From NCBI RefSeq assembly GCF_965641715.1, contig NZ_OZ282453.1: a stretch of 64,000 nt of DNA. One strand, given 5' to 3'. Both the position numbers and the translations under genes were made by a program. Shown piece after piece: positions 1 through 50,428 of the stretch. How positions within the stretch are numbered: the stretch's first letter is position 1; each line of letters begins with the position of its first letter. Source of the stretch: Escherichia coli. GTDB taxonomy: Bacteria; Pseudomonadota; Gammaproteobacteria; Enterobacterales; Enterobacteriaceae. Under the pieces are notes generated by a model that was given only the letters and a program-made list of their open reading frames with translations, did not search any database and was not told the origin of the DNA.

Positions 1-1
1 C

Positions 2-115
2 TTTTGCCGAGAAGATGGCACGACTGACGGCGCAGCTGAAAGATCAGCTGGAAGAGAGCGCGAAGCTGGAAGCACAGATTAAGGCGAATCTGGGGGGGCT
101 GGGTTATGAGTTCTA
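2..115 (+). CDS. hsdM: Type I R-M methyltransferase subunit HsdM, C-terminal fragment (gene starts upstream of window)
   Basis: Open frame from window edge ending ...KLEAQIKANLGGLGYEF*, a typical HsdM C-terminus; stop overlaps the hsdS start (ATGAGTTCTAA). Confidence 0.7.
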
Positions 116-1461
116 AGTTTCGGAAAGTAAAACTATGTGAAATCCTCTCATTTAAGACAGGTAAACTCGACTCGAATGCAGCAGTAGATAATGGTTGTTA
201 TCCTTTTTTTACTTGCTCGCCAGTTACACTTTCGATTAATACGCATGCTTTTGACACTGAAGCAGTATTATTAGCTGGTAATAACGCAAATGGGGTATTT
301 TCAGTAAAATACCACAATGGTAAGTTTAATGCTTACCAAAGAACATATGTTATTACTCCTCTGGATAATTCAGCGGTCAATGTGAAATGGCTTTATTTTA
401 GAATAAAATATGTTACGTCAGAATTACAATCAATGTCAGTTGGCACTGCAACAAAATTCTTAACAAAAAAGATTTTGGATTCATTTGAGATTGAACTGCC
501 AACTTTTGAAGAGCAAACATATCAAGCTCAGATTTTATGGGCGTTACAGGATAAATTAGCTAATAATGAAGCTATAAACCAAACTCTCGAACAAATGGCG
601 CAAGCCCTGTTCAAAAGCTGGTTTGTCGATTTTGAACCGGTAAAAGCCAAAATGGCAGCGTTGGAAGCGGGCGGTTCGCAGGAAGACGCGACACGTGCCG
701 CCATGACGGCAATTTCCGGGAAAGATGCTGATGCGTTGGTGGTTTTTGCGCGTGAACATCCTGAGCAATATGCCGAGTTAAAAGCCACGGCAGAACTGTT
801 TCCGTCTGCGGTGCAGGAAAGTGAGTTGGGGGCGATTCCTAAAGGATGGGGGGTGGCGTCAATTAGTGAGATGGGGAAGATTACTTGTGGCAAAACTCCG
901 TCAAAAAAAGAACCAAAGTATTACGGTGGTGATGTTCCATTCATAAAGATACCAGATATGCATGGGCAACTCTTTGTGCTTAAAACTAATGAATATTTAA
1001 GCGAAGTCGGTTCAAAGTCGCAACTAAAAAAACTTGTGCCCGCTAACTCTATCTGTGTTAGTTGTATAGCTACTATTGGTGTTGTTTCTATCACCAATGA
1101 ACCATCTCATACCAATCAGCAAATAAATTCGGTTACACCTTATAAGAGTTCATTACTTTATTATCTTTATTTTTGTATATTGGGATTGAAAGATCATCTT
1201 CACGTTTTAGGTAGCGCAGGTAGTGCAACCTTAAATGTCAATACGTCTACTTTCTCAGGAATTAAAATCGCTCAGCCTGATGCTAAAGTATTGGAGTTAT
1301 TTCATGCCAAATGTACACAATTATTTAATGAGATTAAATCGCTCTGTGTACAAACTGAATCACTTGCACAACTACGAGACACCCTCCTCCCCAAACTCCT
1401 CTCCGGAGAAATTACGTTACCGGATGCCGAGGAAATAGCCAAGGAAGCTGACTATGTTTAA
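106..1461 (+). CDS. hsdS: Type I R-M specificity subunit HsdS
   Basis: 451 aa; two AT-rich variable target-recognition regions flank a conserved central block (LEQMAQALFKSWFVDFEP) and C-terminal block (LRDTLLPKLLSGEI); start coupled to the hsdM stop. Confidence 0.9.
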   Translation: MSSKFRKVKLCEILSFKTGKLDSNAAVDNGCYPFFTCSPVTLSINTHAFDTEAVLLAGNNANGVFSVKYHNGKFNAYQRTYVITPLDNSAVNVKWLYFRIKYVTSELQSMSVGTATKFLTKKILDSFEIELPTFEEQTYQAQILWALQDKLANNEAINQTLEQMAQALFKSWFVDFEPVKAKMAALEAGGSQEDATRAAMTAISGKDADALVVFAREHPEQYAELKATAELFPSAVQESELGAIPKGWGVASISEMGKITCGKTPSKKEPKYYGGDVPFIKIPDMHGQLFVLKTNEYLSEVGSKSQLKKLVPANSICVSCIATIGVVSITNEPSHTNQQINSVTPYKSSLLYYLYFCILGLKDHLHVLGSAGSATLNVNTSTFSGIKIAQPDAKVLELFHAKCTQLFNEIKSLCVQTESLAQLRDTLLPKLLSGEITLPDAEEIAKEADYV

Positions 1462-2647
1462 AGTCGATCAGCCCAGTAATAGCCTGCAACCGCTTCAGGA
1501 AACCACCTTCACTAACGCGGGTTTCACCGAGCGCTACCACTTACAGGAGTGGCTGGCAAAGCATCCGCAAGCATTGACTCGCAACAGCGATGACGAACTA
1601 CTTATCATCCAGAAAGAGTTTGCCGGGTTTGACGACACCAAAGAGCGGTTAGATCTGCTGGCGATCGACAAAGACGGCAATCTGGTGATCATCGAGAACA
1701 AGCTCGATGATTCCGGGCGTGATGTCGTATGGCAGGCGCTGAAGTACGCGGGCTACTGCGCGAATCTACGCAAAGAACATATTGTTGAGATCTTCCAGCG
1801 TTACCTCGATCAGAACGATCCAGAAGAAACACGCCCAGCCTCTGATGTGCTCGCAGAATTCCTCGAACATGAAAGCCTGGATGAAGTGCAAATTAACCAA
1901 AGCCGTTCCCAGCGTGTGATGATGGTTGCGGCAAATTTCCGCAAGGAAGTTACCAATACTGCGCTCTGGCTGATGCAGTTCAACATCCGTGTCCAATGCT
2001 TTAAGGTCACGCCTTACCGTTATGGAAATGATGTATTCATCGACATCCGCCAGGTTATTCCCACACCGGAAGCCGAATCCTACATGATCGGTATGGCGCA
2101 GAAGGAAGCAGAAGAACAATCAACCAGCGGTGAACTGAAACAGAGCCAACGCCTGCGCAAGGCGTTCTGGACGCAGATGCTGGAGAAATTTCATGCCAGC
2201 GACTGTACGCTGTATAACAACATCAGCCCGTCTATGGATCACTGGTTATGTGCAGGCTCTGGCATAAGTGGTATGCCTTATAGCCTAATATTCAGCAAGA
2301 AGGAAATCCGCGTAGAATTATGGATTTCGCGAGCATCGGCAGACATCAACACCATGGCGTTGAACTGGCTTGAACAACACCGCACATCTGTCGAAGAGGT
2401 ATTCGGCAACCCACTGGAGTGGCTATCGCTACCTGGTAAAAAAGCCTGCCGTATTCAATACCGCCAAAAAATAGATGGCTTCCAGCAGGAAAATTGGCCG
2501 CAAATGATCGACTGGCTGGTGGAACATATGACCCGTTTTGAGAATGCGCTTTCGCCGTATCTGCCACAGCTTAACCAGTTGATCAAGCAGACCTTTAACG
2601 GGCATGATGAAGCTGAAAATACAACAGAAGAAGCCGAACACGTATAA
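1454..2647 (+). CDS. Hypothetical protein embedded between hsdS and hsdR; N-terminal PD-(D/E)XK-like nuclease motif
   Basis: 397 aa; ATG overlaps the hsdS stop by 8 nt with an AAGGAAG RBS; motif ERLDLLAIDKDGNLVIIENK resembles the D...ExK core of Hjc/NucS/RecB-type nucleases; no P-loop. Confidence 0.6.
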   Translation: MFKVDQPSNSLQPLQETTFTNAGFTERYHLQEWLAKHPQALTRNSDDELLIIQKEFAGFDDTKERLDLLAIDKDGNLVIIENKLDDSGRDVVWQALKYAGYCANLRKEHIVEIFQRYLDQNDPEETRPASDVLAEFLEHESLDEVQINQSRSQRVMMVAANFRKEVTNTALWLMQFNIRVQCFKVTPYRYGNDVFIDIRQVIPTPEAESYMIGMAQKEAEEQSTSGELKQSQRLRKAFWTQMLEKFHASDCTLYNNISPSMDHWLCAGSGISGMPYSLIFSKKEIRVELWISRASADINTMALNWLEQHRTSVEEVFGNPLEWLSLPGKKACRIQYRQKIDGFQQENWPQMIDWLVEHMTRFENALSPYLPQLNQLIKQTFNGHDEAENTTEEAEHV

Positions 2648-2662
2648 CACAGGACGTTACCG

Positions 2663-5600
2663 ATGCTTACCGAAGACGACTTAGAACAGCTTTGCCAGGG
2701 CTGGTTTGCCGAACAAGGTTGGGAAATCCATCATGGGCCAGATATTGCCCCCGATGGCTGTAACCCGCAACGCGCCAGCTATCATGATGTATTCCTGACG
2801 CCCGTGTTGAACGCCTGCCTGCAAAAAATCAACCCGCACCTGCCCACTGACGTCTTCGAACAGGTCATCTCCCGTATTACTCGCGCTGAAAGCCCGGATC
2901 TGATTGCCAGTAACAAAGCCTTTCATCACTGGTTGCTGGAAGGGGTTCCGGTACAGTACCGTCGCGACGAAGAACTTATCCACGACCACGCCCTGCTGGT
3001 GGATTTTAGCCAGCCGCAAAACAACCGTTTTATGGTGGTCAATCAAATGACTATCAGCGGAACGAAACAGCCTCGCCGCCCGGATATCATCTGCTTTATT
3101 AACGGAATACCACTGGCGGTTGTGGAACTAAAAAGCCCTGTCGATGACAAGGTAGATATCTGGGATGCGTACCACCAGTTACAGACCTATAAAGATGAAA
3201 TACGCGACCTGTTTATCAGCAATGAAGCGTTGATTGTCAGTGATGGTTATCTGGCGCGTGTGGGGTCCCTGACCGCCACGGAAGAACGTTTTATGCCGTG
3301 GAAGACCATCAGCAATGAAAATGACAAGCCGTTGCTGGAATGGCAACTGGAAACTATGGTACGGGGTTTCTTCAACCGGGAATTGCTGCTCGACTATATC
3401 CGCTATTTCGTTCTGTTTGAAAATAACGATGAAAGGCTAATTAAGAAAATAGCTGGTTATCACCAGTTCCACGCGGTGCGTGAGGCCGTGCAGGCGACGA
3501 TCGTTGCTTCGACCGGTAAGCAACTGGTACTGCACAGTAATATTCAGCCAGGCAGTAAGAAAGCAGGCGTGGTCTGGCATACGCAGGGTTCCGGTAAAAG
3601 CATCTCCATGTGTTGCTATGTCGGCAAACTGTTGCAACAGCCGGAGATGGGCAACCCGACGATTGTTGTTGTGACCGATCGTAACGATCTGGACGGCCAG
3701 CTTTATGGTACATTCTGCCAGGCACAGGAGCTGCTCAAGCAAATGCCGGTACAGGCAGATGATCGTGAAACATTGCGTGATCTGCTTGCAACTCGCGATG
3801 CTGGCGGCATTATCTTTACCACCGTGCAGAAATTCTCCCCGGAAGAAGGGGAAAACGCCCATCCGATTCTCAATGGACGCAGCAATATCGTTGTTATTTC
3901 CGATGAAGCGCACCGCAGCCAGTACGGCATGAAAGCCAACCTGGATCGTAAAACCGGCGTCTATAAATACGGTTACGCTAAACATATGCGCGACGCGCTA
4001 CCTAACGCCTCGTTTCTGGGATTTACCGGTACACCGGTTTCGGCAGAGGATCGCGATACTCGCGCTGTATTTGGCGATTACGTCTCAATTTATGATATTC
4101 AGGACGCTGTGGACGATGGCGCAACGGTGCCTATTCACTATGAATCCCGGCTGGCAAAACTCGATCTCAATCATGAAGAGCTGGCGGCGCTGTCCGATCA
4201 GGTTGAAGAACTGATTGAGGACGATGAGCTGGATCAGAGAGAAAAAACCAAAGGTGAATGGAGCCGTCTGGAGAAACTAGTTGGTGCTAAACCACGTCTT
4301 CAGCAGATCGCTGCCGATCTGATTTCTCACTTTGAGAAGCGCAATACCGTAATGGACGGCAAGGCGATGATTGTCGCCATGAGCCGTGAAATCTGCGTCC
4401 ATCTTTACGATGAAATTATTGCGTTGCGTCCGGAGTGGCACGATGACGATCCTGAAAAAGGGCAAATCAAAATCGTGATGACCGGTACAGCATCTGATAA
4501 GGCAATGCTGCAACCGCATATCTACAACAAACGGACTAAAAAACGGCTGGAATCCCGCTTCAAGAATGTGAACGACCCGCTGAAGCTGGTGATAGTGCGT
4601 GATATGTGGCTGACCGGCTTTGATGCCCCATGCTGTCACACTATGTATATCGACAAACCGATGCGCGGCCATAACCTGATGCAGGCTATTGCCCGTGTCA
4701 ACCGGGTATTCAAAGACAAGCCCGGCGGGCTGGTGGTGGATTATATTGGTATCGCCAATGAGCTGAAACTGGCGCTGAAAACTTATACCGATGCAAACGG
4801 TAAAGGTGATGCGACCGTCAACGCTGAAGAAGCACTGGCAATCATGCTGGAAAAGCTGGACATCATCCACGGTATGTTTGCCAAAACGGCAACGTCAGCG
4901 GGTTTTGATTACACCGGCTTTGAAGCTCATGCGCAGAAGTTGCTAGTACCAGTTGCAAACTATGTGCTCGGCCTTGAAGACGGTAAGAAGCGTTTTCTCG
5001 ATAACGTACTGGCAATTACTAAAGCCTGGTCGCTTTGCTGTACGCTGGATGCGGCGCAGCCTTATAAACTAGAGATTGCTTTCTTGTCGGCGGTAAAAGC
5101 TGCTATCAGCAAATTCACCAGTGTGGACAAAAAAATAAGCCAGGCTGAGAAGAACTCCGCGCTGAAACAGATTCTGGATAATGCCGTAATTGCTAACGGC
5201 GTGGATGATATTTTCACGCTGGCTGGTCTGGATAAACCGAATATTGGCTTGCTTTCAGATGAATTCTTGCAGGAAGTCCGCGATATGCCATATCGAAATC
5301 TGGCGGTAGAGCTGCTGGAAAAACTGATTAATGACGGTATCCAGTCCCGTACAAAAAACAATGTAGTGCAGGAGAGGAAATATTCAGAACGTCTTCAGGC
5401 TGTATTGATTAAATACAACAACCGGGCTATTGAGACGGCGCAGGTGATTGAAGAGCTGATCCAGATGGCGAAGGATTTTCAGTCTGCAATGGCGCGTGAT
5501 GATGCGCTTGGCCTGAATCCTGACGAGATCGCTTTCTACGATGCACTGGCAGAAAACGAAAGCGCCGTCCGGGAGTTAGGAGATGAGGTACTTAAGAAAC

Positions 5601-5797
5601 TGGCGATAGAAGTGACGCTGAAGCTGCGCCAATCCACTACCGTTGACTGGCAGGTACGGGAAAGCGTTCGTGCAAGGCTGCGTATCCTGGTTCGCCAGAC
5701 TCTGCGTCGGTATAAGTATCCGCCAGATAAAACGCCGGGTGCGGTGGAGTTAATTTTGAAACAAGCGGAAGTTATTTCGAATCATTGGACGATGTGA
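2663..5797 (+). CDS. hsdR: Type I R-M restriction subunit HsdR
   Basis: 1044 aa; N-terminal nuclease motif ([18 protein letters not shown]), helicase motif I ([11 protein letters not shown]), DEAH box ([12 protein letters not shown]), motif III (GFTGTP). Confidence 0.92.
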
Positions 5798-5803
5798 ATT
5801 TTA

Positions 5804-5833
5804 GGCTGGCTGTATCAACTGCCAGCCATATTT
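5804..5833 (+). terminator. Hairpin downstream of hsdR (GGCTGGC-N10-GCCAGCC followed by ATATTT)
   Basis: Perfect 7-bp inverted repeat read directly from sequence, 7 nt after the hsdR stop; T-tract is weak. Confidence 0.45.
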
Positions 5834-5861
5834 AAATTATCATCAGTTAAAAGGCACAATT

Positions 5862-7604
5862 GTGAGTAAATATAGCGAAATACAACGTCAATTAGATGAA
5901 GTAAGCCCAATACCGAAAGGTATTCCTAAAGTATACCTTTTAGGGGACACTGGAGCAGGAAAGACGACTTTTATTCGAAAAATATTAGGAACTGAAAATA
6001 CCAAATTCCCTACCACCAGACAAAGTAGAACAACCGTTGCACCAACTGAGTATGTAATATGTAAATCATCCAATTATGAATTAACGATTCTGTTAAAATC
6101 TTTTGATGAGATTAATGGATATGTCAGAGAAATTCTAAAAGAAGCATTAGAGAAATCATTGAAAGGTGAAGATGTTAAAAGAAGCTTACGTCAAACAAAT
6201 GATCAGCGGTTTCGTTTATACTATCTTCTTGACGTCAGTGATATTGCAAATTTTGCTGAAGAAGTTATCTCTCTTACACCTCTTCTTTCCGAAAAAATTG
6301 ACGAATTAAAAGAAATTTTTACCGATGATATAACGGATCAAGATGAGTATATTAGTTTTGCTATTGATGAATTAAATGATAAAGTTGAATGTATCCAAAA
6401 TAAGATTATGGACTCCATTCAGAGTAATGTAATGTCCATTTGTAATGGAAGTATGTTAAGTAATGAATCACAGATATTTAAATACATTTCAACCGAAAAA
6501 GAAGACTTTATCAAAAAATGTAAAAAAATATTATCAAGTGATAAAGAGTCTATATCACCTGTTGTCGAGTATGCGAGACTGAGTGGAGAACTCAAATCAG
6601 AATGGGTGAATAGTTGTGCAGAAATAGTTATTATTGATGGTGAAGGTATTGGGCATAATACAAAAGAAACGGCACAACTAGACTCCAGGCATTATGATTT
6701 CTTTTATGATGTTAACTCAATCTTGCTTATCGAAGAGTCAAAAAAACCTTTTATTGCTGGGGGCAAAAATGCATTAAAAAGTATTTTTCAGCGTGGATAT
6801 GGTGATAAATTAAAACTAATCTTCACTAAGCTGGATGAAGTTATACCTTATGATTCAGACGAATCAACAGATGAAGATAGAATTGATTATGTAAAAGATG
6901 GTCTCAATAATGTTCTGGATGCATTAAAAAAAGAAGAGGTGAAGTGTAACATTGATATCGAGGATATTTATTTCATCGGAGATCTTGATAAACCTGAGCA
7001 TAACGCAAGACTTGAATTGGCTTTTAATTCCATATATGAAAACACAGTTTCCATGATAAATAATGATGAGGTTTTCATTGAGCCTAAGTATGACTTTGAG
7101 TTATTGGCCTTGCATATAAATTCTACTTCTAATGATTTTAAAACATACTATAGAAAATTATTAGATAGAGAACATTGGAAAACAATAGAAGCATTTAATC
7201 GACGGATGTATTCAAATATAGATGGGTTTAGGATGTTTATGCCTATTACCGATTTTGAGGAAACTGTGAGTAAATATATTGGTGGTTTTTTGACCTCGCC
7301 AATGGATTGGAAATATGAAGCGGTTGATAACTTGAAGCAAAAAAGTATTAATAAAATCAAGAGGGAATTCAACAAGCTTATTCTTAGCTTTATTCGCAAT
7401 AAGTTAATTATGGAACCATATGAAAAATGGAAAGAATCCTATTTCTTAGCTGGCACTGGTTCAACGATTAGTAGAAAACGTGAGATAACTACTATTTTTA
7501 GTGACACAATTATTGATGCCTCCCAAACTGAACGCTTTAAGGTGTTCAAGGATCAAATTAAAGAGATTGTTGTCAAGTCAATAGAGAACTGTAAGTCAAT
7601 ATAA
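5862..7604 (+). CDS. AT-rich P-loop NTPase of unknown function (GTPase-like or ABC-like)
   Basis: 580 aa, GTG start with AAAGG RBS; Walker A/G1 GDTGAGKTT (aa 28-36); far downstream VIIDGEG (DxxG or Walker B-like) and FTKLD ([N/T]KxD-like); LSGE ~15 aa before VIIDGEG could be an ABC signature; GC roughly one third by eye. Confidence 0.6.
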   Translation: MSKYSEIQRQLDEVSPIPKGIPKVYLLGDTGAGKTTFIRKILGTENTKFPTTRQSRTTVAPTEYVICKSSNYELTILLKSFDEINGYVREILKEALEKSLKGEDVKRSLRQTNDQRFRLYYLLDVSDIANFAEEVISLTPLLSEKIDELKEIFTDDITDQDEYISFAIDELNDKVECIQNKIMDSIQSNVMSICNGSMLSNESQIFKYISTEKEDFIKKCKKILSSDKESISPVVEYARLSGELKSEWVNSCAEIVIIDGEGIGHNTKETAQLDSRHYDFFYDVNSILLIEESKKPFIAGGKNALKSIFQRGYGDKLKLIFTKLDEVIPYDSDESTDEDRIDYVKDGLNNVLDALKKEEVKCNIDIEDIYFIGDLDKPEHNARLELAFNSIYENTVSMINNDEVFIEPKYDFELLALHINSTSNDFKTYYRKLLDREHWKTIEAFNRRMYSNIDGFRMFMPITDFEETVSKYIGGFLTSPMDWKYEAVDNLKQKSINKIKREFNKLILSFIRNKLIMEPYEKWKESYFLAGTGSTISRKREITTIFSDTIIDASQTERFKVFKDQIKEIVVKSIENCKSI

Positions 7605-7615
7605 TAAGATAGAAC

Positions 7616-7638
7616 AGTCCCGGATAATATTCGGGACT
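7616..7638 (+). other. Hairpin after NTPase gene (AGTCCCG-N9-CGGGACT)
   Basis: Perfect 7-bp stem 12 nt after the stop codon; no U-tract, so may be an RNA-stability or processing element rather than a terminator. Confidence 0.35.
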
Positions 7639-7706
7639 CATACACTTACAGATGGAGCTATGAATTTAGCAGTAAGAGTATTTGTGATTATTTAAGGAAA
7701 GTAACA

Positions 7707-8672
7707 ATGCCTTTAGATTTAAGTAACACTTTAGTTATTGGCATTAGCGCGACTGCGCTTTTTGACATGAGCGAATCCGACCATATGTTTCGGGAAACCT
7801 TTGCGACTGATCCTGATAGCGCCATTGAAAAATACCGCGCTTATATGCTAGAACACGAAAACCAACCTTTACAGCCCGGAACAGGCTACCCCTTAGTCAA
7901 AGCGTTGCTGGGTCTGAACCAGTACCGTCAACCGGATGATAAATCGCCGTTGGTTGAGGTTGTTGTGATGTCACGTAACAGCCCTGATACAGGTATCCGC
8001 GTTCTCAATACCATTCGCCATGACAAACTCGATATTACACGTTCAGCTTTTACCGCAGGCGAAACCGTTGCCGATTACCTTGATGCCTTTGATGTGGATC
8101 TGTTTTTAACGACCAACGTTGAAGATGCGCAAAAGGTGATTGATTCCCGATTCTGCGCCGCTGCAATCCTGAAAGATCCACCTTCTGACGCATCTGATAT
8201 CCCAGAAGGGCAAGTGCGCATTGCTTTTGATGGCGACGCGGTACTTTTTTCCGATCAAAGCGAACTGGTTTATAAGACCCAAGGAATGGCTGCCTTCCAT
8301 GCTCAGGAAGACGCGCAGCAGGATATCCCTATGGAAGAGGGGCCTTATGCCACTTTGCTAAAAAAAATAGCCAAGCTTCAGGAACGATTGCCGACCCGCG
8401 TTGAGTATTCTCCTGTTCGTATTGCGCTGGTGACAGCCCGAAATAGCCCTTCGGAAATGCGCGTTATTAAAACGCTAAGAAGCTGGGGGGTATATGTCGA
8501 TGAAGCTTTTTTTCTTGGCGGTGTAGAGAAAACAAAAGTTCTGAAGGCGTTTAGGCCACACATTTTCTTTGACGATCAGGATGTGCATTTGATCGCGGCT
8601 GCAAAGGTAGTACCTTCTGGTAAAGTACCTTATGCCAGTAACTCCGAACTTGCAGAACGTGAAGCATCGTGA
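7707..8672 (+). CDS. HAD-superfamily phosphatase, cytosolic 5'-nucleotidase-like
   Basis: 321 aa; RBS AAGGAAAG; C-terminal half carries HAD-like motifs I (IAFDGDAVLF), II (IALVTARN), a conserved Lys and IV (HIFFDDQDVH); N-terminal ~170 aa is a separate domain. Assignment is from motifs, not a search. Confidence 0.55.
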   Translation: MPLDLSNTLVIGISATALFDMSESDHMFRETFATDPDSAIEKYRAYMLEHENQPLQPGTGYPLVKALLGLNQYRQPDDKSPLVEVVVMSRNSPDTGIRVLNTIRHDKLDITRSAFTAGETVADYLDAFDVDLFLTTNVEDAQKVIDSRFCAAAILKDPPSDASDIPEGQVRIAFDGDAVLFSDQSELVYKTQGMAAFHAQEDAQQDIPMEEGPYATLLKKIAKLQERLPTRVEYSPVRIALVTARNSPSEMRVIKTLRSWGVYVDEAFFLGGVEKTKVLKAFRPHIFFDDQDVHLIAAAKVVPSGKVPYASNSELAEREAS

Positions 8673-8680
8673 TTATCGCT

Positions 8681-8715
8681 GACAAACCATTTAGTCATTA
8701 AGACTGAATGGTTTG
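8681..8715. other. Hairpin between convergent genes (ACAAACCATT-N15-AATGGTTTGT)
   Basis: Perfect 10-bp inverted repeat in the 77-bp gap between the nucleotidase-like gene and the HNH gene; possible bidirectional terminator. Confidence 0.4.
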
Positions 8716-8749
8716 TATGCCACTCGCAAAATATCTGCCCTACCTCAAA

Positions 8750-9625
8750 TCAATGCTCTCCTCTGAACACCTCTTTTCTGTGCCATTCCACAAACTGCTC
8801 GCCCGGATAATTTTCTTTAACCGGTGGCAACGCAATCGCCTTTCCCGCAAAATCCCAGAACAGTCGCTGTACCACTCCACCACCATTTACCGCGCCGGAA
8901 ACCACCACACGCATATTTTCATCCAAGCCAATCGAACCGCGATCAAACGCTTTATGATGGATTGCGCACAATGCCAGGCCATTAGGTACTTCACAAGGGC
9001 CATGGTGCTGCTTCCATCTGATATGAGCAGCTTCCAGAGCAATTGGCGCATTGTCGTGGCGCATGTTGAAGCCGCAGATCGCACACTGATAATTGTAAGC
9101 ACGTAGCACCATCTGGCGGAACTTCGGATCGCGTTGACGGAGAGAGGTGCGAATATCAAAACCCATCTCGTCAGCTATCTCTTCCTGAATACTGGCCGGG
9201 AAATGCGCCTCCAGGAGCTGCTGCGCCAGCGTATCAATTAACCTGTGATTTTTTGCCACCAACGCAAAATTATCGGCATCAAATCCACCAGCGACATTAT
9301 ATTCAATGAGTTCACGTCGGGGCGGCTGGCGGCTACCACTGGTTGAGCACAGTTGTGCGTTTTGTAGTTCCCAGAAGCCATCGCCCTTCAGACGCCAGAA
9401 CGGCATGTCCGGGCGCTGGTCACGGCGCTGCGGTCCATAACGTTCCAGAAGATCCAACAGGGGCTCGTAGATTTCAGAACCATAGTTAAACAGGCGACCA
9501 TGACCCTGCCGATAGTGTGAGAGGACGTGCAGCAGCAATAATGGCTTATGTGGCGCACGTTGTTCGCCTTTGCGCCAGATGGTGATATTTGATATCGCTT
9601 GCTTTAGGGCTTTGTCAGAGGTCAT
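8750..9625 (-). CDS. HNH endonuclease with N-terminal putative DNA-recognition domain (candidate Type IV restriction enzyme)
   Basis: C-terminal HNH motif YQCAICGF...AAHIRWKQHHGPCEVPNGLALCAIHHKAFDRG (CxxC, H, N, CxxHH); ~190-aa N-terminal domain unidentified. Start set at ATG (MTSDKAL); the track ORF extends to a TTG at 9670. Confidence 0.6.
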   Translation of the reverse strand: MTSDKALKQAISNITIWRKGEQRAPHKPLLLLHVLSHYRQGHGRLFNYGSEIYEPLLDLLERYGPQRRDQRPDMPFWRLKGDGFWELQNAQLCSTSGSRQPPRRELIEYNVAGGFDADNFALVAKNHRLIDTLAQQLLEAHFPASIQEEIADEMGFDIRTSLRQRDPKFRQMVLRAYNYQCAICGFNMRHDNAPIALEAAHIRWKQHHGPCEVPNGLALCAIHHKAFDRGSIGLDENMRVVVSGAVNGGGVVQRLFWDFAGKAIALPPVKENYPGEQFVEWHRKEVFRGEH

Positions 9626-9769
9626 TGCGTTGAAGAATCCATGAGCACATATTTGCGATGATGCTCGCAACTATATGTACATTCAAGGCATTATTGCAGA
9701 CATCCTTTTTGCCTGACTGCTCTGTACCTGGCAGATGAAATTCTGATAACAACGGTAAAAAATACAGCG

Positions 9770-9804
9770 ACCAACCAGTCCTAAGCGGGCTGGTTGGTCT
9801 TTTA
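9770..9804. terminator. Rho-independent-type hairpin downstream of integrase gene
   Basis: GACCAACCAG-N11-CTGGTTGGTC with A-run before and TTTT after on the + strand (bidirectional form). Confidence 0.55.
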
Positions 9805-9840
9805 AATTTAAACATCAGCCGAGGAATAACGGCATTCAAC

Positions 9841-11109
9841 TCACTCGCCATTACCCCGATTGATCTTCGCATAGTCAAACGGCGTAATCGCTCTCTCCCG
9901 ATTGGCATCCAGAAAATCAGCCCACCACTGCAACATCAGCTTGCGCTCATCCAGGTGTTCCGCTTTATGGATATACGCCGCCCTCACCGAGCTGCGTTCC
10001 ATATGGCTCATCTGCCTTTCCACCGCATCCTTCGACCATAACCCTGACTCAATCAATGAGCTACAGGCCATTGTGCGGAAGCCGTGGCCGCAAACTTCAA
10101 CCTTAGTGTCATAACCCATCACCCGTAGCGCACTGTTTACCGTGTTCTCGCTCATGGGCTTACGCGGATCGTGATCGCCAATAAAAATCAGCTCATGTTC
10201 GCCACAGAACTGTTTTATCTGCTTCAGGATCGCCAGCGCCTGCTTTGAAAGCGGCACCAGATGCGGTGTACGCATCTTTGAACCTCGCTGAGAATGTTTC
10301 ACACCGGGAATCGGTTCTCGCTCAGGCGGGATGGTCCACATTGACGTTTCAAAATCGATTTCTGACCAGCGAGCAAAACGTAGCTCACTGGATCGAATAA
10401 AGATAAGCAGAGTGAGTTCTGTCGCCCAGCGGGTTAGCGGCCTGCCTGTATAGCTATCTATTTTCTCAAGTAACTCAGGGATACGCTTTAATTCCAGCGC
10501 CGGGCGATGCTGTCGATTGCCAGAGGCGACTGCTCCAGCCATCTCCTGCGCTGGGTTGTAATCAATCAGCCCACTTTGCACTGCATAACGCATAATGGCC
10601 GTGGTACGCTGTTGGAGACGAGAAGCCACCTCAAGACGTCCAGACAGTTCCACCGCTTTAATGGGTGCCAGTAAGTCACGAGTGCCCAATTCGGCAATAT
10701 TGCGAGAACCAATTGCCGGGAAGATATTGTCCTCCAGGCTCTTTTTTACACGATTAGCATGATCTTCTGACCATTTTTGGTTGGTTACGAGCCACTCTCT
10801 GGCAACCTTCTCGAAAGTAATAATCTCTTTCGCCTGCTCTTCTTTCACAGCACGCTTATGCTCACGAGGATCGATACCAGCAGCTACCAGCTTTCTGGCC
10901 TCTTCCCTTTTCTTCCTGGCATCTGCCAGCGAAACATCCGGGTAAACGCCGAACGCCATCAAATGTTGTTTACCGCCAAAACGGAAACGAAATCGCCAAT
11001 ACTTTGAACCGCCAGGTTTTACAAGTAAGGACATGCCATCGCCGTCAACAAGTGAATACTCTTTCTCCTCAGGTTTCGCAGAGCGAACTTTAGTATCCGT
11101 TAGGGCCAT
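9841..11109 (-). CDS. intB: P4-type tyrosine integrase (IntB-like) adjacent to leuX
   Basis: Begins MALTDTKVRSAKP..., ends ...AITPFDYAKINRGNGE; C-terminal catalytic region with R...HxxR...Y pattern; start trimmed from the track ORF (448 aa) to the conserved MALTD start (422 aa). Confidence 0.85.
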   Translation of the reverse strand: MALTDTKVRSAKPEEKEYSLVDGDGMSLLVKPGGSKYWRFRFRFGGKQHLMAFGVYPDVSLADARKKREEARKLVAAGIDPREHKRAVKEEQAKEIITFEKVAREWLVTNQKWSEDHANRVKKSLEDNIFPAIGSRNIAELGTRDLLAPIKAVELSGRLEVASRLQQRTTAIMRYAVQSGLIDYNPAQEMAGAVASGNRQHRPALELKRIPELLEKIDSYTGRPLTRWATELTLLIFIRSSELRFARWSEIDFETSMWTIPPEREPIPGVKHSQRGSKMRTPHLVPLSKQALAILKQIKQFCGEHELIFIGDHDPRKPMSENTVNSALRVMGYDTKVEVCGHGFRTMACSSLIESGLWSKDAVERQMSHMERSSVRAAYIHKAEHLDERKLMLQWWADFLDANRERAITPFDYAKINRGNGE

Positions 11110-11280
11110 AATGGTCTTCCTTCCATTGGTATCTCGTGAGTATACAAGCAATATCGAATCGGCAAATATACTCATTAGTATACTCACAAGCCTGTTGATG
11201 TGGGTTGGTTCAGGTTGACTTCAGTTGAGGAGAAAAGCTGGAAAAGCCTTGCGTGGCGCGGATTTCAGGCATAAAAAAAG

Positions 11281-11306
11281 ACCTCAGTTGAGGTCTATTT
11301 ACATAC
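11281..11306 (-). terminator. leuX terminator
   Basis: On the minus strand AGACCTCAACTGAGGTCT hairpin followed by TTTTTT, immediately 3' of the tRNA. Confidence 0.7.
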
Positions 11307-11309
11307 TTT

Positions 11310-11394
11310 TGGTGCCGAAGGCCGGACTCGAACCGGCACGTATTTCTACGGTTGATTTTGAATCAACTGCGTCTACCGATTTCGCCACTTCGGC
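11310..11394 (-). tRNA. leuX: tRNA-Leu (anticodon CAA)
   Basis: Reverse complement reads GCCGAAGTGGCGAAATCGGTAGACGCAGTTGATTCAAAATCAACCGTAGAAATACGTGCCGGTTCGAGTCCGGCCTTCGGCACCA: cloverleaf with CAA anticodon and CCA end. Confidence 0.95.
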
Positions 11395-11589
11395 ACTGAA
11401 GAGGTATGCGGAAAACGTTGTGGATTATACCTGTCGCACGCCACCATGCAAGCGCCAGCTTGCTCGCACCTCGCTAAGTGCTGAAATTTTCAGCATTGCA
11501 TACAGCGATGTGTAACCTTTGTCACACTCCAGGCACCCCGCCCTGCCATGCTCTACACTTCCCAGACAACACCAGAGAAGGACCAAAAA

Positions 11590-12609
11590 ATGTCGATGAT
11601 AAGAAGCTATGCCGCAAAAGAAGCGGGCGGCGAACTGGAAGTTTATGAGTACGATCCCGGTGAGCTGAAGCCACAAGATGTTGAAGTGCAGGTGGATTAC
11701 TGCGGGATCTGCCATTCCGATCTGACGATGATCGATAACGAATGGGGATTTTCACAATATCCGCTGGTTGCCGGGCATGAGGTGATTGGGCGCGTGGTGG
11801 CACTCGGGAGCGCCGCGCAGGATAAAGGTTTGCAGGTCGGTCAGCGTGTCGGGATTGGCTGGACGGCGCGTAGCTGTGGTCACTGCGACGCCTGTATTAG
11901 CGGTAATCAGATCAACTGCGAGCAAGGTGCGGTGCCGACGATTATGAATCGCGGCGGTTTTGCCGAGAAGTTGCGTGCAGACTGGCAATGGGTGATTCCA
12001 CTGCCAGAAAATATTGATATCGAGTCCGCCGGGCCGCTGCTGTGTGGTGGTATCACGGTCTTTAAACCACTGTTGATGCACCATATCACTGCTACCAGCC
12101 GCGTTGGGGTAATTGGTATTGGCGGGCTGGGGCATATCGCTATAAAACTTCTGCACGCAATGGGATGCGAGGTGACAGCCTTTAGTTCTAATCCGGCGAA
12201 AGAGCAGGAAGTACTGGCGATGGGTGCCGATAAAGTGGTGAATAGCCGCGATCCGCAGGCACTGAAAGCCCTGTCGGGGCAGTTTGATCTCATTATCAAT
12301 ACTGTGAACGTCAGCCTCGACTGGCAGCCTTATTTTGAGGCGCTGGCCTATGGCGGTAATTTCCATACGGTCGGTGCGGTTCTCACGCCGCTATCTGTTC
12401 CGGCCTTTACGTTAATTGCGGGCGACCGCAGCATCTCTGGTTCTGCTACCGGCACGCCTTATGAGCTGCGAAAGCTGATGCGCTTTGCCGCCCGTAGCAA
12501 GGTTGCGCCGACCACCGAACTGTTCCCGATGTCGAAAATTAACGACGCCATCCAGCATGTGCGCGACGGTAAGGCGCGTTACCGCGTGGTGTTGAAAGCC
12601 GATTTTTGA
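11590..12609 (+). CDS. ahr: NADPH-dependent aldehyde reductase, Zn-dependent alcohol dehydrogenase family
   Basis: 339 aa starting [21 protein letters not shown] zinc-ADH motif; start trimmed from the track ORF to the ATG with GAAGGA RBS. Confidence 0.9.
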
Positions 12610-21845: not shown

Positions 21846-23360
<1,515 letters not shown>

Positions 23361-47033: not shown

Positions 47034-47049
47034 TCTGCACTAAGCAAAT

Positions 47050-47200
<151 letters not shown>

Positions 47201-50323: not shown

Positions 50324-50428
50324 TTGCCGGATACGGTGCACCTGTAGGCCTGATAAGACGCATCAAGCGTCGCATCAGGCACTATGCTCAAATGCCGGAT
50401 GCGGCGTGAACGCCTTATCCGGCCTACG
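50324..50428. repeat. REP/BIME cluster
   Basis: GCCGGATACGG..., GTAGGCCTGATAAGACGCATC..., GCCGGATGCGGCGTGAACGCCTTATCCGGCCTAC. Confidence 0.85.

Follow-up and report, generated by a model that had tools for sequence, protein, structure and literature searches.

In E. coli, the tRNA gene leuX marks defence hotspot #37, a site that is occupied in 97.3% of genomes, K-12 included (PMC10121019, Hochhauser et al. 2023). A defence system is found in 97.4% of the occupied sites, and 31 system types are represented (PMC10121019; PMC12707154). The same study could not identify how 68% of the occupants are mobilised (PMC10121019). Described systems that are relevant for individual genes of such islands include MdgA, a single-gene modification-dependent nuclease built from NucS and DUF4268 (PMC12366544; bioRxiv 10.1101/2025.02.28.640651), and the dynamin-like proteins of phage defence, namely Eleos and B. 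subtilis DynA (bioRxiv 10.1101/2022.05.11.491447; PMC8844932). Here we analyse a stretch of 64,000 nucleotides from E. coli (NCBI RefSeq assembly GCF_965641715.1, contig NZ_OZ282453.1), in the following called the window. With a probability of roughly 0.9, its positions 1-11309 are the integrase-proximal part of a leuX island of ~24.5 kb that goes back to a P4-family insertion, stands in tandem with an older island, and carries exchangeable immunity cassettes.

The locus shares with hotspot #37 the site itself (from ahr-leuX to nanS), an arm-type integrase beside the tRNA, and a cargo of Type I restriction-modification (R-M), phosphorothioate (PT)-related restriction and other defence genes. 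With the classical leuX islands (KpLE2/intB of K-12, attB of phage P4) it shares the 20-bp core of P4 attP. It differs from the described occupants in three respects: none of 5,426 complete genomes holds this exact mosaic; its distal repeat and tandem arrangement are resolved, which bears on the unclear mode of mobilisation; and two cassettes, a PDC-S08 nucleotidase and an unlisted GTPase, lie outside the validated systems. The class to which the island belongs, that of the P4-type integrase islands at leuX hotspot #37, is documented, and the island adds a new mosaic to it. As an island it carries little weight; leuX is on record as the E. coli defence hotspot with the heaviest occupation and the greatest diversity. 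With the distal repeat resolved, the locus acquires a concrete history of mobilisation, at a hotspot for which the mode has been described as unclear. Further results are an MdgA-like open reading frame (ORF), an HNH enzyme of the EcoWI type, the dissolution of a supposed gene pair, and a candidate for a single-gene defence family. As candidate immunity genes we flag the dynamin-like GTPase, the PDC-S08 nucleotidase, and a pair of genes for proteins of 1,569 and 743 amino acids (aa).

Anatomy of the integrase-proximal end

A preliminary description of this DNA, made from the sequence alone, had proposed a leuX-integrated island with stacked defence modules, of which the integrase-proximal end lies in the window. 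All features of this proposal are found where it had placed them, and the annotated elements are as follows.

1-116 (+): 3' end of hsdM, Type I methyltransferase; the gene is intact (568 aa) in the upstream locus L010 (PADLOC MTase_I, 587 bits)
106-1461 (+): hsdS, specificity subunit, 451 aa (PADLOC Specificity_I, 534 bits)
1454-2647 (+): NucS-like PD-(D/E)xK nuclease fused to DUF4268, 397 aa, MdgA-like (PADLOC candidate PDC-S11)
2663-5797 (+): hsdR, restriction subunit, 1044 aa, intact (TIGR00348, 620 bits with a cut-off of 285; PADLOC REase_I, 1207 bits)
5862-7604 (+): stand-alone dynamin-like GTPase of an uncharacterised family, 580 aa, 32% GC; a P-loop ORF and candidate defence gene
7707-8672 (+): PF06189 HAD-type 5'-nucleotidase, 321 aa (Pfam 4.6e-119; PADLOC PDC-S08, 444 bits, full length)
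8750-9625 (-): PT-dependent type IV restriction endonuclease with sulfur-binding domain (SBD) and HNH domain, 291 aa (NF045808, 442.6 bits with a cut-off of 180)
9769-9799 (no strand assigned): perfect hairpin (13-bp stem, then a T-run) that separates the integrase stop from the start of the PT-dependent enzyme
9841-11109 (-): P4-type tyrosine integrase, 422 aa, apparently intact (Arm-DNA-bind_3, Phage_int_M, Phage_integrase)
11279-11296 (-): intrinsic terminator hairpin of leuX, within the island-borne attL arm (terminator-like scan)
11310-11394 (-): leuX, tRNA-Leu(CAA), the sole tRNA in the window (ARAGORN and Rfam tRNA)

The outer flank of leuX (ahr-idnK-idnD-idnO-idnT-idnR-yjgR-lptGF-pepA) is the E. 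coli leuX neighbourhood. The 3'-terminal 23-mer of the tRNA gene, TTCGAGTCCGGCCTTCGGCACCA, has a single occurrence in the window and is identical to the string quoted in the preliminary description. Its last 20 nucleotides (window 11310-11329) equal the annotated 20-bp attP core of phage P4, GAGTCCGGCCTTCGGCACCA, and constitute the attL core. The integrase ORF extends over 9841-11187 (-), with the likely true start at 11109 (MALTDTK...). Its domains PF13356, PF22022 and PF00589 are the P4-type set, and the protein is 57.4% identical to phage P4 Int across 97% of its length. Together with the shared attP core, these properties bear out the assignment as a P4-type integrase at a classic insertion site. 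The motifs RSSELR (residue 239), HGFR (342) and AAYIH (377) are present, and in our reading their contexts, judged without alignment to a characterised integrase, are expected to hold the catalytic residues. Integrase and leuX are adjacent and on the same strand, but they do not abut in the strict sense: a spacer of 200 bp, which contains the terminator of the tRNA, lies in between. The hairpin at 9769-9799 is the strongest terminator-like structure of the island in the terminator-like scan. In the promoter and terminator scans, the counts did not exceed those of shuffled sequence, and beyond the leuX terminator and this one strong hairpin the scans are uninformative on operon structure.

Distal boundary and tandem structure

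According to the preliminary description, the island should end upstream of position 1 in a repeat of the leuX 3' end. As upstream extension we used contig DBKREQ010000008.1 of assembly GCA_053637755.1, which is 99.99% identical to window 1-11460 and was found via public contigs that encode the exact HsdS protein of the window. The loci L010 and L016 are parts of this extension and represent the same genome type as the window. The expected repeat exists ~13.2 kb upstream of window position 1, at L016:10915-10928, as an imperfect copy: CGGCCTTCGCACCA, also written CGGCCTTCG-CACCA, matches 14 of the last 15 nucleotides of leuX, with one G deleted. On its distal side, the island ends in a direct repeat of the tRNA 3' end. 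In substance the expectation of a repeat holds; the suggested exact look-up of the 23-mer upstream would have overlooked it. Neither an exact search nor one with up to 3 mismatches, conducted in the window, related complete genomes and the upstream extension, returned anything other than leuX itself, because the repeat carries an indel (in other strains, a triplication of CACCTTCG). The distal repeat surfaced when the conserved far flank from other E. coli was compared with these loci by BLAST and the flanks were aligned.

Alignment and raw sequence of L016:10915-11371 agree on the order of elements at this junction: the leuX 3' copy, a diverged leuX terminator, the integrase upstream region, and an integrase pseudogene. 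The terminator copy shows compensatory stem changes relative to the leuX terminator. The integrase remnant consists of the start MALSDVKVRSAKPEAKAY followed by a stop, and then a short C-terminal integrase fragment. The distal junction is that of an island inserted in front of an older island, and the leuX locus is a tandem array, formed by accretion of two islands. A comparable arrangement is found at the far flank of two unrelated E. coli (L021 and L026), consisting of GTT[C/T]GAGTCCGGCCTTCGCACCTTCGCACCTTCGCACCA, terminator and integrase upstream region, with the integrase deleted. The far flanks of the genome of the window and of these strains have the same type of repeat with one base deleted. 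As a separate observation, the distal repeat at L021:9200-9237 and in L026 combines a tandem triplication of CACCTTCG with the same one-G deletion, and the deletion of the integrase is clean.

The island next to leuX, denoted island A, has a length of ~24.5 kb, and window 1-11309 is its integrase-proximal 46%. Proceeding upstream, its remaining genes encode HsdM, a ThsB-like TIR protein, a WYL protein, a YfjP-like GTPase and a 261-aa protein; then AlpA, YagK/YfjJ, a 317-aa protein, DUF932, RadC, CbeA/CbtA and DUF4942 proteins; and finally RHH/ParE and an HTH regulator. These upstream genes are the backbone of a CP4-57-like island. The older and decayed island, island B (~9.4 kb), lies behind the distal repeat and retains the dead integrase and two large genes. 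Beyond island B follows a flank that is common to most E. coli and leads into a gene for a 216-aa ScoMcrA_N protein, nanS, nanM, nanC and fimB.

The cargo of island B is located at L016:12497-19434, ~15-22 kb upstream of position 1. The two genes are co-oriented and overlapping and encode proteins of 1,569 aa and 743 aa, neither of which has a match in Pfam, PADLOC, PHROGs or NCBIfam. The gene pair could be an undescribed two-gene system.

Variability and mosaic composition

The occurrence of the island and its parts was counted in a BLAST set of 5,426 complete E. coli genomes. No genome covers at least 80% of window 1-12000, and each single part is uncommon as well. The counts for parts of the island derive from differing BLAST modes, with the two that involve the nucleotidase obtained in the more sensitive distant mode: integrase together with the PT-dependent enzyme occurs in 124 genomes, DUF4268 together with hsdR in 62, the nucleotidase in 87, and GTPase together with nucleotidase in 2. 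The preliminary description had considered the case that all related genomes hold the same content at leuX without integrase-associated boundaries. What we find is presence/absence polymorphism, with a leuX-nanS content that is quite different in other strains. K-12, which had been named as the empty site for comparison, is occupied as well: its leuX holds an intB pseudogene and KpLE2.

Pairwise BLAST places the breakpoints of similarity at gene ends (5801, 7696-7707 and 8672-8756). Strain 2EC1 has the segments 1368-5801 and 8756-12000 in common with the window, E. coli W the segment 7696-12000, and E. coli G3/10 the segment 1362-8672; for K-12 the common segment is only 9859-12000, with 82% identity. 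In G3/10, a block of TerY-P, hsdMS, DUF4268, hsdR, GTPase and nucleotidase is located at tRNA-Sec (selC) behind a different integrase, and Buttiauxella carries a near-identical block. The GTPase gene also stands out by composition, with 32% GC versus 47-52% in the neighbouring genes. Two observations, the dead integrase of island B and the recurrence of the cargo block at selC behind another integrase, point to successive P4-type insertions, followed by exchange of cassettes by recombination.

Two further observations concern related loci. E. coli G3/10 has two copies of DUF4268-hsdR. One, at a second chromosomal site that is presumably leuX, is 98.6% identical to that of the window; the other, ~80% identical, is the copy at selC that is accompanied by GTPase and nucleotidase. 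The island of the window looks like a recombinant of these two module types. Furthermore, plasmid pMTY18781-2 (NZ_AP023207.1, 93.8 kb; L062) contains leuX together with the chromosomal sequence that flanks it (an ahr fragment, yjgR, lptG and lptF) and a related island with integrase, PT-dependent enzyme, nucleotidase, Dsr1 and Type I R-M. Either the plasmid has captured chromosomal DNA, or the record is misassembled.

Restriction enzymes of the cargo

The Type I R-M system is complete, with intact hsdM, hsdS and hsdR in one locus (PADLOC, TIGR00348). Compared to related islands, hsdS matches only in the N-terminal junction and in the central conserved region (574-849), and both target-recognition domains differ. 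The specificity of the system is therefore probably unlike that of its closest relatives.

Embedded between hsdS and hsdR is the ORF with DUF4268 (PF14088, 3e-36), which forms the C-terminal domain (residues 234-370). The N-terminal part has a NucS-like PD-(D/E)xK fold that includes the catalytic E-x-K. The same succession of an N-terminal NucS-like fold and a C-terminal DUF4268 is found in MdgA, whose catalytic context VI[IV]ENKLDD is nearly identical in the protein of the window (PMC12366544; bioRxiv 10.1101/2025.02.28.640651). A difference is that the gene considered here sits inside a Type I R-M operon (PADLOC PDC-S11).

The third enzyme had been listed as an HNH nuclease. The HNH domain is present (HNH_2, PF13391), and the assignment can be refined: the protein also has a DNA-SBD_ScoMcrA domain (PF26340) and matches NF045808, the family of type IV enzymes that bind phosphorothioated DNA. 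Among PDB sequences it matches the SBD of ScoMcrA (5zmo) and the HNH domain of TagI. It is 98% identical to its orthologue at leuX of E. coli W, with 5 residues different; this protein of E. coli W we take to be EcoWI. As in EcoWI and ScoMcrA, the SBD is followed by the HNH domain (PMC9521924). From its domains, the enzyme is predicted to be a type IV enzyme of the EcoWI/ScoMcrA kind.

Adjoining hsdM on the upstream side, at L010:7112-8089 (~1.8-2.8 kb upstream of position 1), we observe the gene of the ThsB-like TIR protein (PADLOC PDLC00420, 521 bits). Thoeris comprises ThsB and ThsA, and the island genes enumerated above include none that resembles ThsA. The protein is either an orphan Thoeris sensor or belongs to a different TIR system.

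The nucleotidase

The 5'-nucleotidase contains HAD motif I as FDGDAVLF at residue 174, with the DxDx(V) motif present. In the literature on PDC-S08 and PF06189 in defence we found no functional study and no paper that establishes anti-phage activity. The nucleotidase gene always has Type I R-M and an integrase close by, and six different upstream neighbours occur, among them an unrelated 582-aa protein, ISKpn26, HrgA, Dsr1, and a 421-aa hypothetical protein. The 582-aa protein, which is that of E. coli W, was considered as a divergent homologue of the 580-aa GTPase and rejected: BLASTP detects no similarity, and PADLOC and NCBIfam give no match. In the selC island of E. coli CFSAN051542 (L059:5767-6950), ISKpn26 and a 73-aa ORF replace the GTPase at its G3/10 position, and the nucleotidase is kept.

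The dynamin-like GTPase

The 580-aa protein has no family match in any library searched. Its homologues include more than 300 close ones of conserved length, with no Pfam domain. We are confident that the protein has a dynamin-like GTPase fold. An exhaustive profile search gives 792 clusters at E <= 1e-3 and 554 at E <= 1e-10, corresponding to a family of ~550-800 clusters at 50% identity, with length classes of ~585, ~750 and ~975 aa. We examined 34 loci, namely 30 from a scan with one genome per species and four from distant annotated genomes. Type I R-M occurs within 10 kb of the GTPase in 6 of the 34 loci, Bacillota included, where the gene adjoins hsdR as in the window. Neighbours at other loci are DrmD (DISARM), a BrxH/HmaA-like protein with a methyltransferase, PbeA/PbeC with a DUF4268 gene, a GajB-like helicase, a RecD-like PDC-S68 protein, and a ThsB-like fragment.

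The class of ~975 aa consists of the GTPase module (N-terminal 570 residues) and, at the C-terminus, an ABC ATPase with matches to AriA (1e-40) and PtuA (9e-24). A PtuB-like gene of ~255 aa (2e-16) comes directly after the fusion in 9 loci, and AFDB50 contains the same GTPase-ATPase fusions. The fusion and the PtuB-like gene look like a Septu/PARIS-like system with a GTPase as N-terminus, in which the GTPase module would most plausibly act as the gate of a Septu-like nuclease system. The fused loci (L039-L048 and L051, for example L043:9986-13740) come from Campylobacterota, Gammaproteobacteria and Bacteroidota.

With regard to described systems, the GTPase resembles Eleos (LeoA/LeoBC) and B. 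subtilis DynA in its dynamin-like fold, its helical stalk and its setting in a defence island. It differs from Eleos in that it has no match to LeoA or LeoBC of PADLOC (no PADLOC family at E <= 0.001) and is a single gene instead of a two- or three-gene operon, with no conserved neighbour for the ~580-aa form. It is shorter than Eleos proteins and DynA and has no membrane paddle. The relation to Septu (PtuA/PtuB) and to AriA of PARIS is through the ~975-aa relatives, whose C-terminus is AriA/PtuA-like and whose next gene is PtuB-like; in the window the GTPase module stands on its own, with neither the ABC ATPase nor a PtuB-like gene beside it, and hence is not assigned to Septu.

We propose that the stand-alone 580-aa protein is an immune GTPase. 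Specifically, we suggest, at odds slightly below even, that it is an undescribed single-gene anti-phage system acting as a soluble GTP-driven sensor or effector, whose module is reused as the N-terminal sensor of a Septu/PARIS-like ABC ATPase with a PtuB-type partner. If true, the family would join dynamin-like mechanochemistry to nucleic-acid-targeting immunity.

Proposed origin of the locus and alternative explanations

The locus is best explained by the following sequence of events. A P4-family tyrosine integrase would have inserted island A into the 3' end of leuX, at the 20-bp core of phage P4. Integration would have rebuilt the tRNA from the island-borne 3' copy (attL), and the original tRNA 3' end, with everything behind it, would have been pushed to the distal junction. 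Island B, of whose integrase only the remnant persists, would already have been located behind leuX, which amounts to tandem accretion. Within the cargo, the Type I R-M system would cut unmethylated DNA, the NucS/DUF4268 nuclease, if indeed MdgA-like, hypermodified phage DNA, and the PT-dependent SBD-HNH enzyme phosphorothioated DNA. The HAD 5'-nucleotidase may deplete the nucleotide pool or remove modified nucleotides, and the stand-alone dynamin-like GTPase may be a GTP-driven sensor or effector. The data show the anatomy, the boundaries, the mosaic composition, and the domains and folds; the three cassettes outside the R-M system are putative anti-phage genes, and island A may be competent for excision to the present day. 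Related islands would exchange cassettes by recombination at gene boundaries, and the islands concerned include those at the tRNA site selC.

An alternative explanation is that the locus is an immobile, decaying remnant, whose integrase and repeats are fossils, and that the diversity of the cargo arises solely by homologous recombination between conserved flanks after transduction or conjugation. We regard this as possible but rather doubtful. The imperfect distal repeat and the dead second integrase fit a fossil, whereas the integrase next to leuX is full length and shows the expected catalytic contexts, and an AlpA-family gene for excision or regulation is present. Recombination between flanks would explain breakpoints at gene boundaries within common backbone genes, as well as the identical cargo at selC behind a different integrase, and the 94-kb plasmid with leuX, chromosomal flanks and a related island indicates that transfer of large segments is possible. 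That most occupants of hotspot #37 (68%) have no identified mode of mobilisation (Hochhauser et al., PMC10121019) points in the same direction. The tandem arrangement nonetheless records at least two separate integrase-type insertions, and the two mechanisms are not mutually exclusive. We retain an integrase-inserted island with exchangeable cassettes as the preferred reading, against which several points have to be set. The far boundary was read in a near-identical public assembly and is outside the window itself. With 14 of 15 nucleotides and an indel, the distal repeat may have lost the ability to support excision, and no excised or empty-site form of island A was observed. Past island B no further repeat was found, and the outer limit of the variable region is set by strain comparison alone. 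The likeness to MdgA is one of domain architecture, fold and a 9-residue motif, not of a full-length alignment, and the putative defence roles of nucleotidase and GTPase derive from genomic context and candidate lists, not from experiments.

For the GTPase and the nucleotidase, two further explanations have to be weighed. Both genes had been introduced as an NTPase/nucleotidase pair, and they might constitute one obligate two-gene defence system in which the nucleotidase is activated once the GTPase has sensed infection. The two genes are direct neighbours in the same orientation, 102 bp apart with no predicted terminator between them, and travel jointly in four enterobacterial islands (those of the window, EC291, G3/10 and Buttiauxella). 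Such a system is nevertheless improbable, as each gene is widespread without the other. The nucleotidase is found in 87-100 complete E. coli genomes, with the GTPase also present in only 2 and lacking in ~85-100, and the upstream neighbour of the nucleotidase is variable between loci. Conversely, the GTPase stands alone in the four distant annotated genomes, with no PF06189 gene within 8 kb by called genes and Pfam; BLASTP with the nucleotidase of the window against all 34 loci matches a neighbour solely in the closely related Buttiauxella island (L029); and an all-against-all comparison of neighbours finds none that is conserved for the ~580-aa GTPase. The recombination breakpoint at ~7696-7707 lies between the two genes, directly before the start codon of the nucleotidase, and GC differs (32% versus 47%). 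The supposed pair is best read as two independent cassettes. As to the GTPase alone, it is unlikely, though less so than the obligate pair, that the protein is a membrane-remodelling or housekeeping accessory that hitch-hikes in islands. Its closest structural relatives (SynDLP, BDLP, mitofusin and IniA) act on membranes, but the protein itself has neither a hydrophobic paddle nor a transmembrane segment (maximum Kyte-Doolittle value over 19 residues 0.87). In Aeromonas and Pectobacterium the gene stands alone among housekeeping genes, and the protein has no recognisable effector domain; its spread over more than 8 phyla is however patchy, as for a horizontally transferred gene, and the Type I R-M and other defence genes in its neighbourhood, as well as the fusions to a PtuA/AriA-type ABC ATPase with a PtuB-like gene next to them, argue for an immune GTPase.

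Other features of the window

Outside the island, an ORF of 555 aa at 30452-32119 (-) has ~36% GC and no NCBIfam match. It adjoins argF/argI and a YjgK/TabA-like gene, and by position it is probably yjgL. Rfam matches at gathering score are located at 22407-22601, 40024-40139, 47049-47119, 50347-50424 and 56587-56665. They comprise the Ysr276 antisense RNA (180 bits), an Mg riboswitch (126 bits), presumably the mgtA leader, and three naRNA4/REP-type elements.

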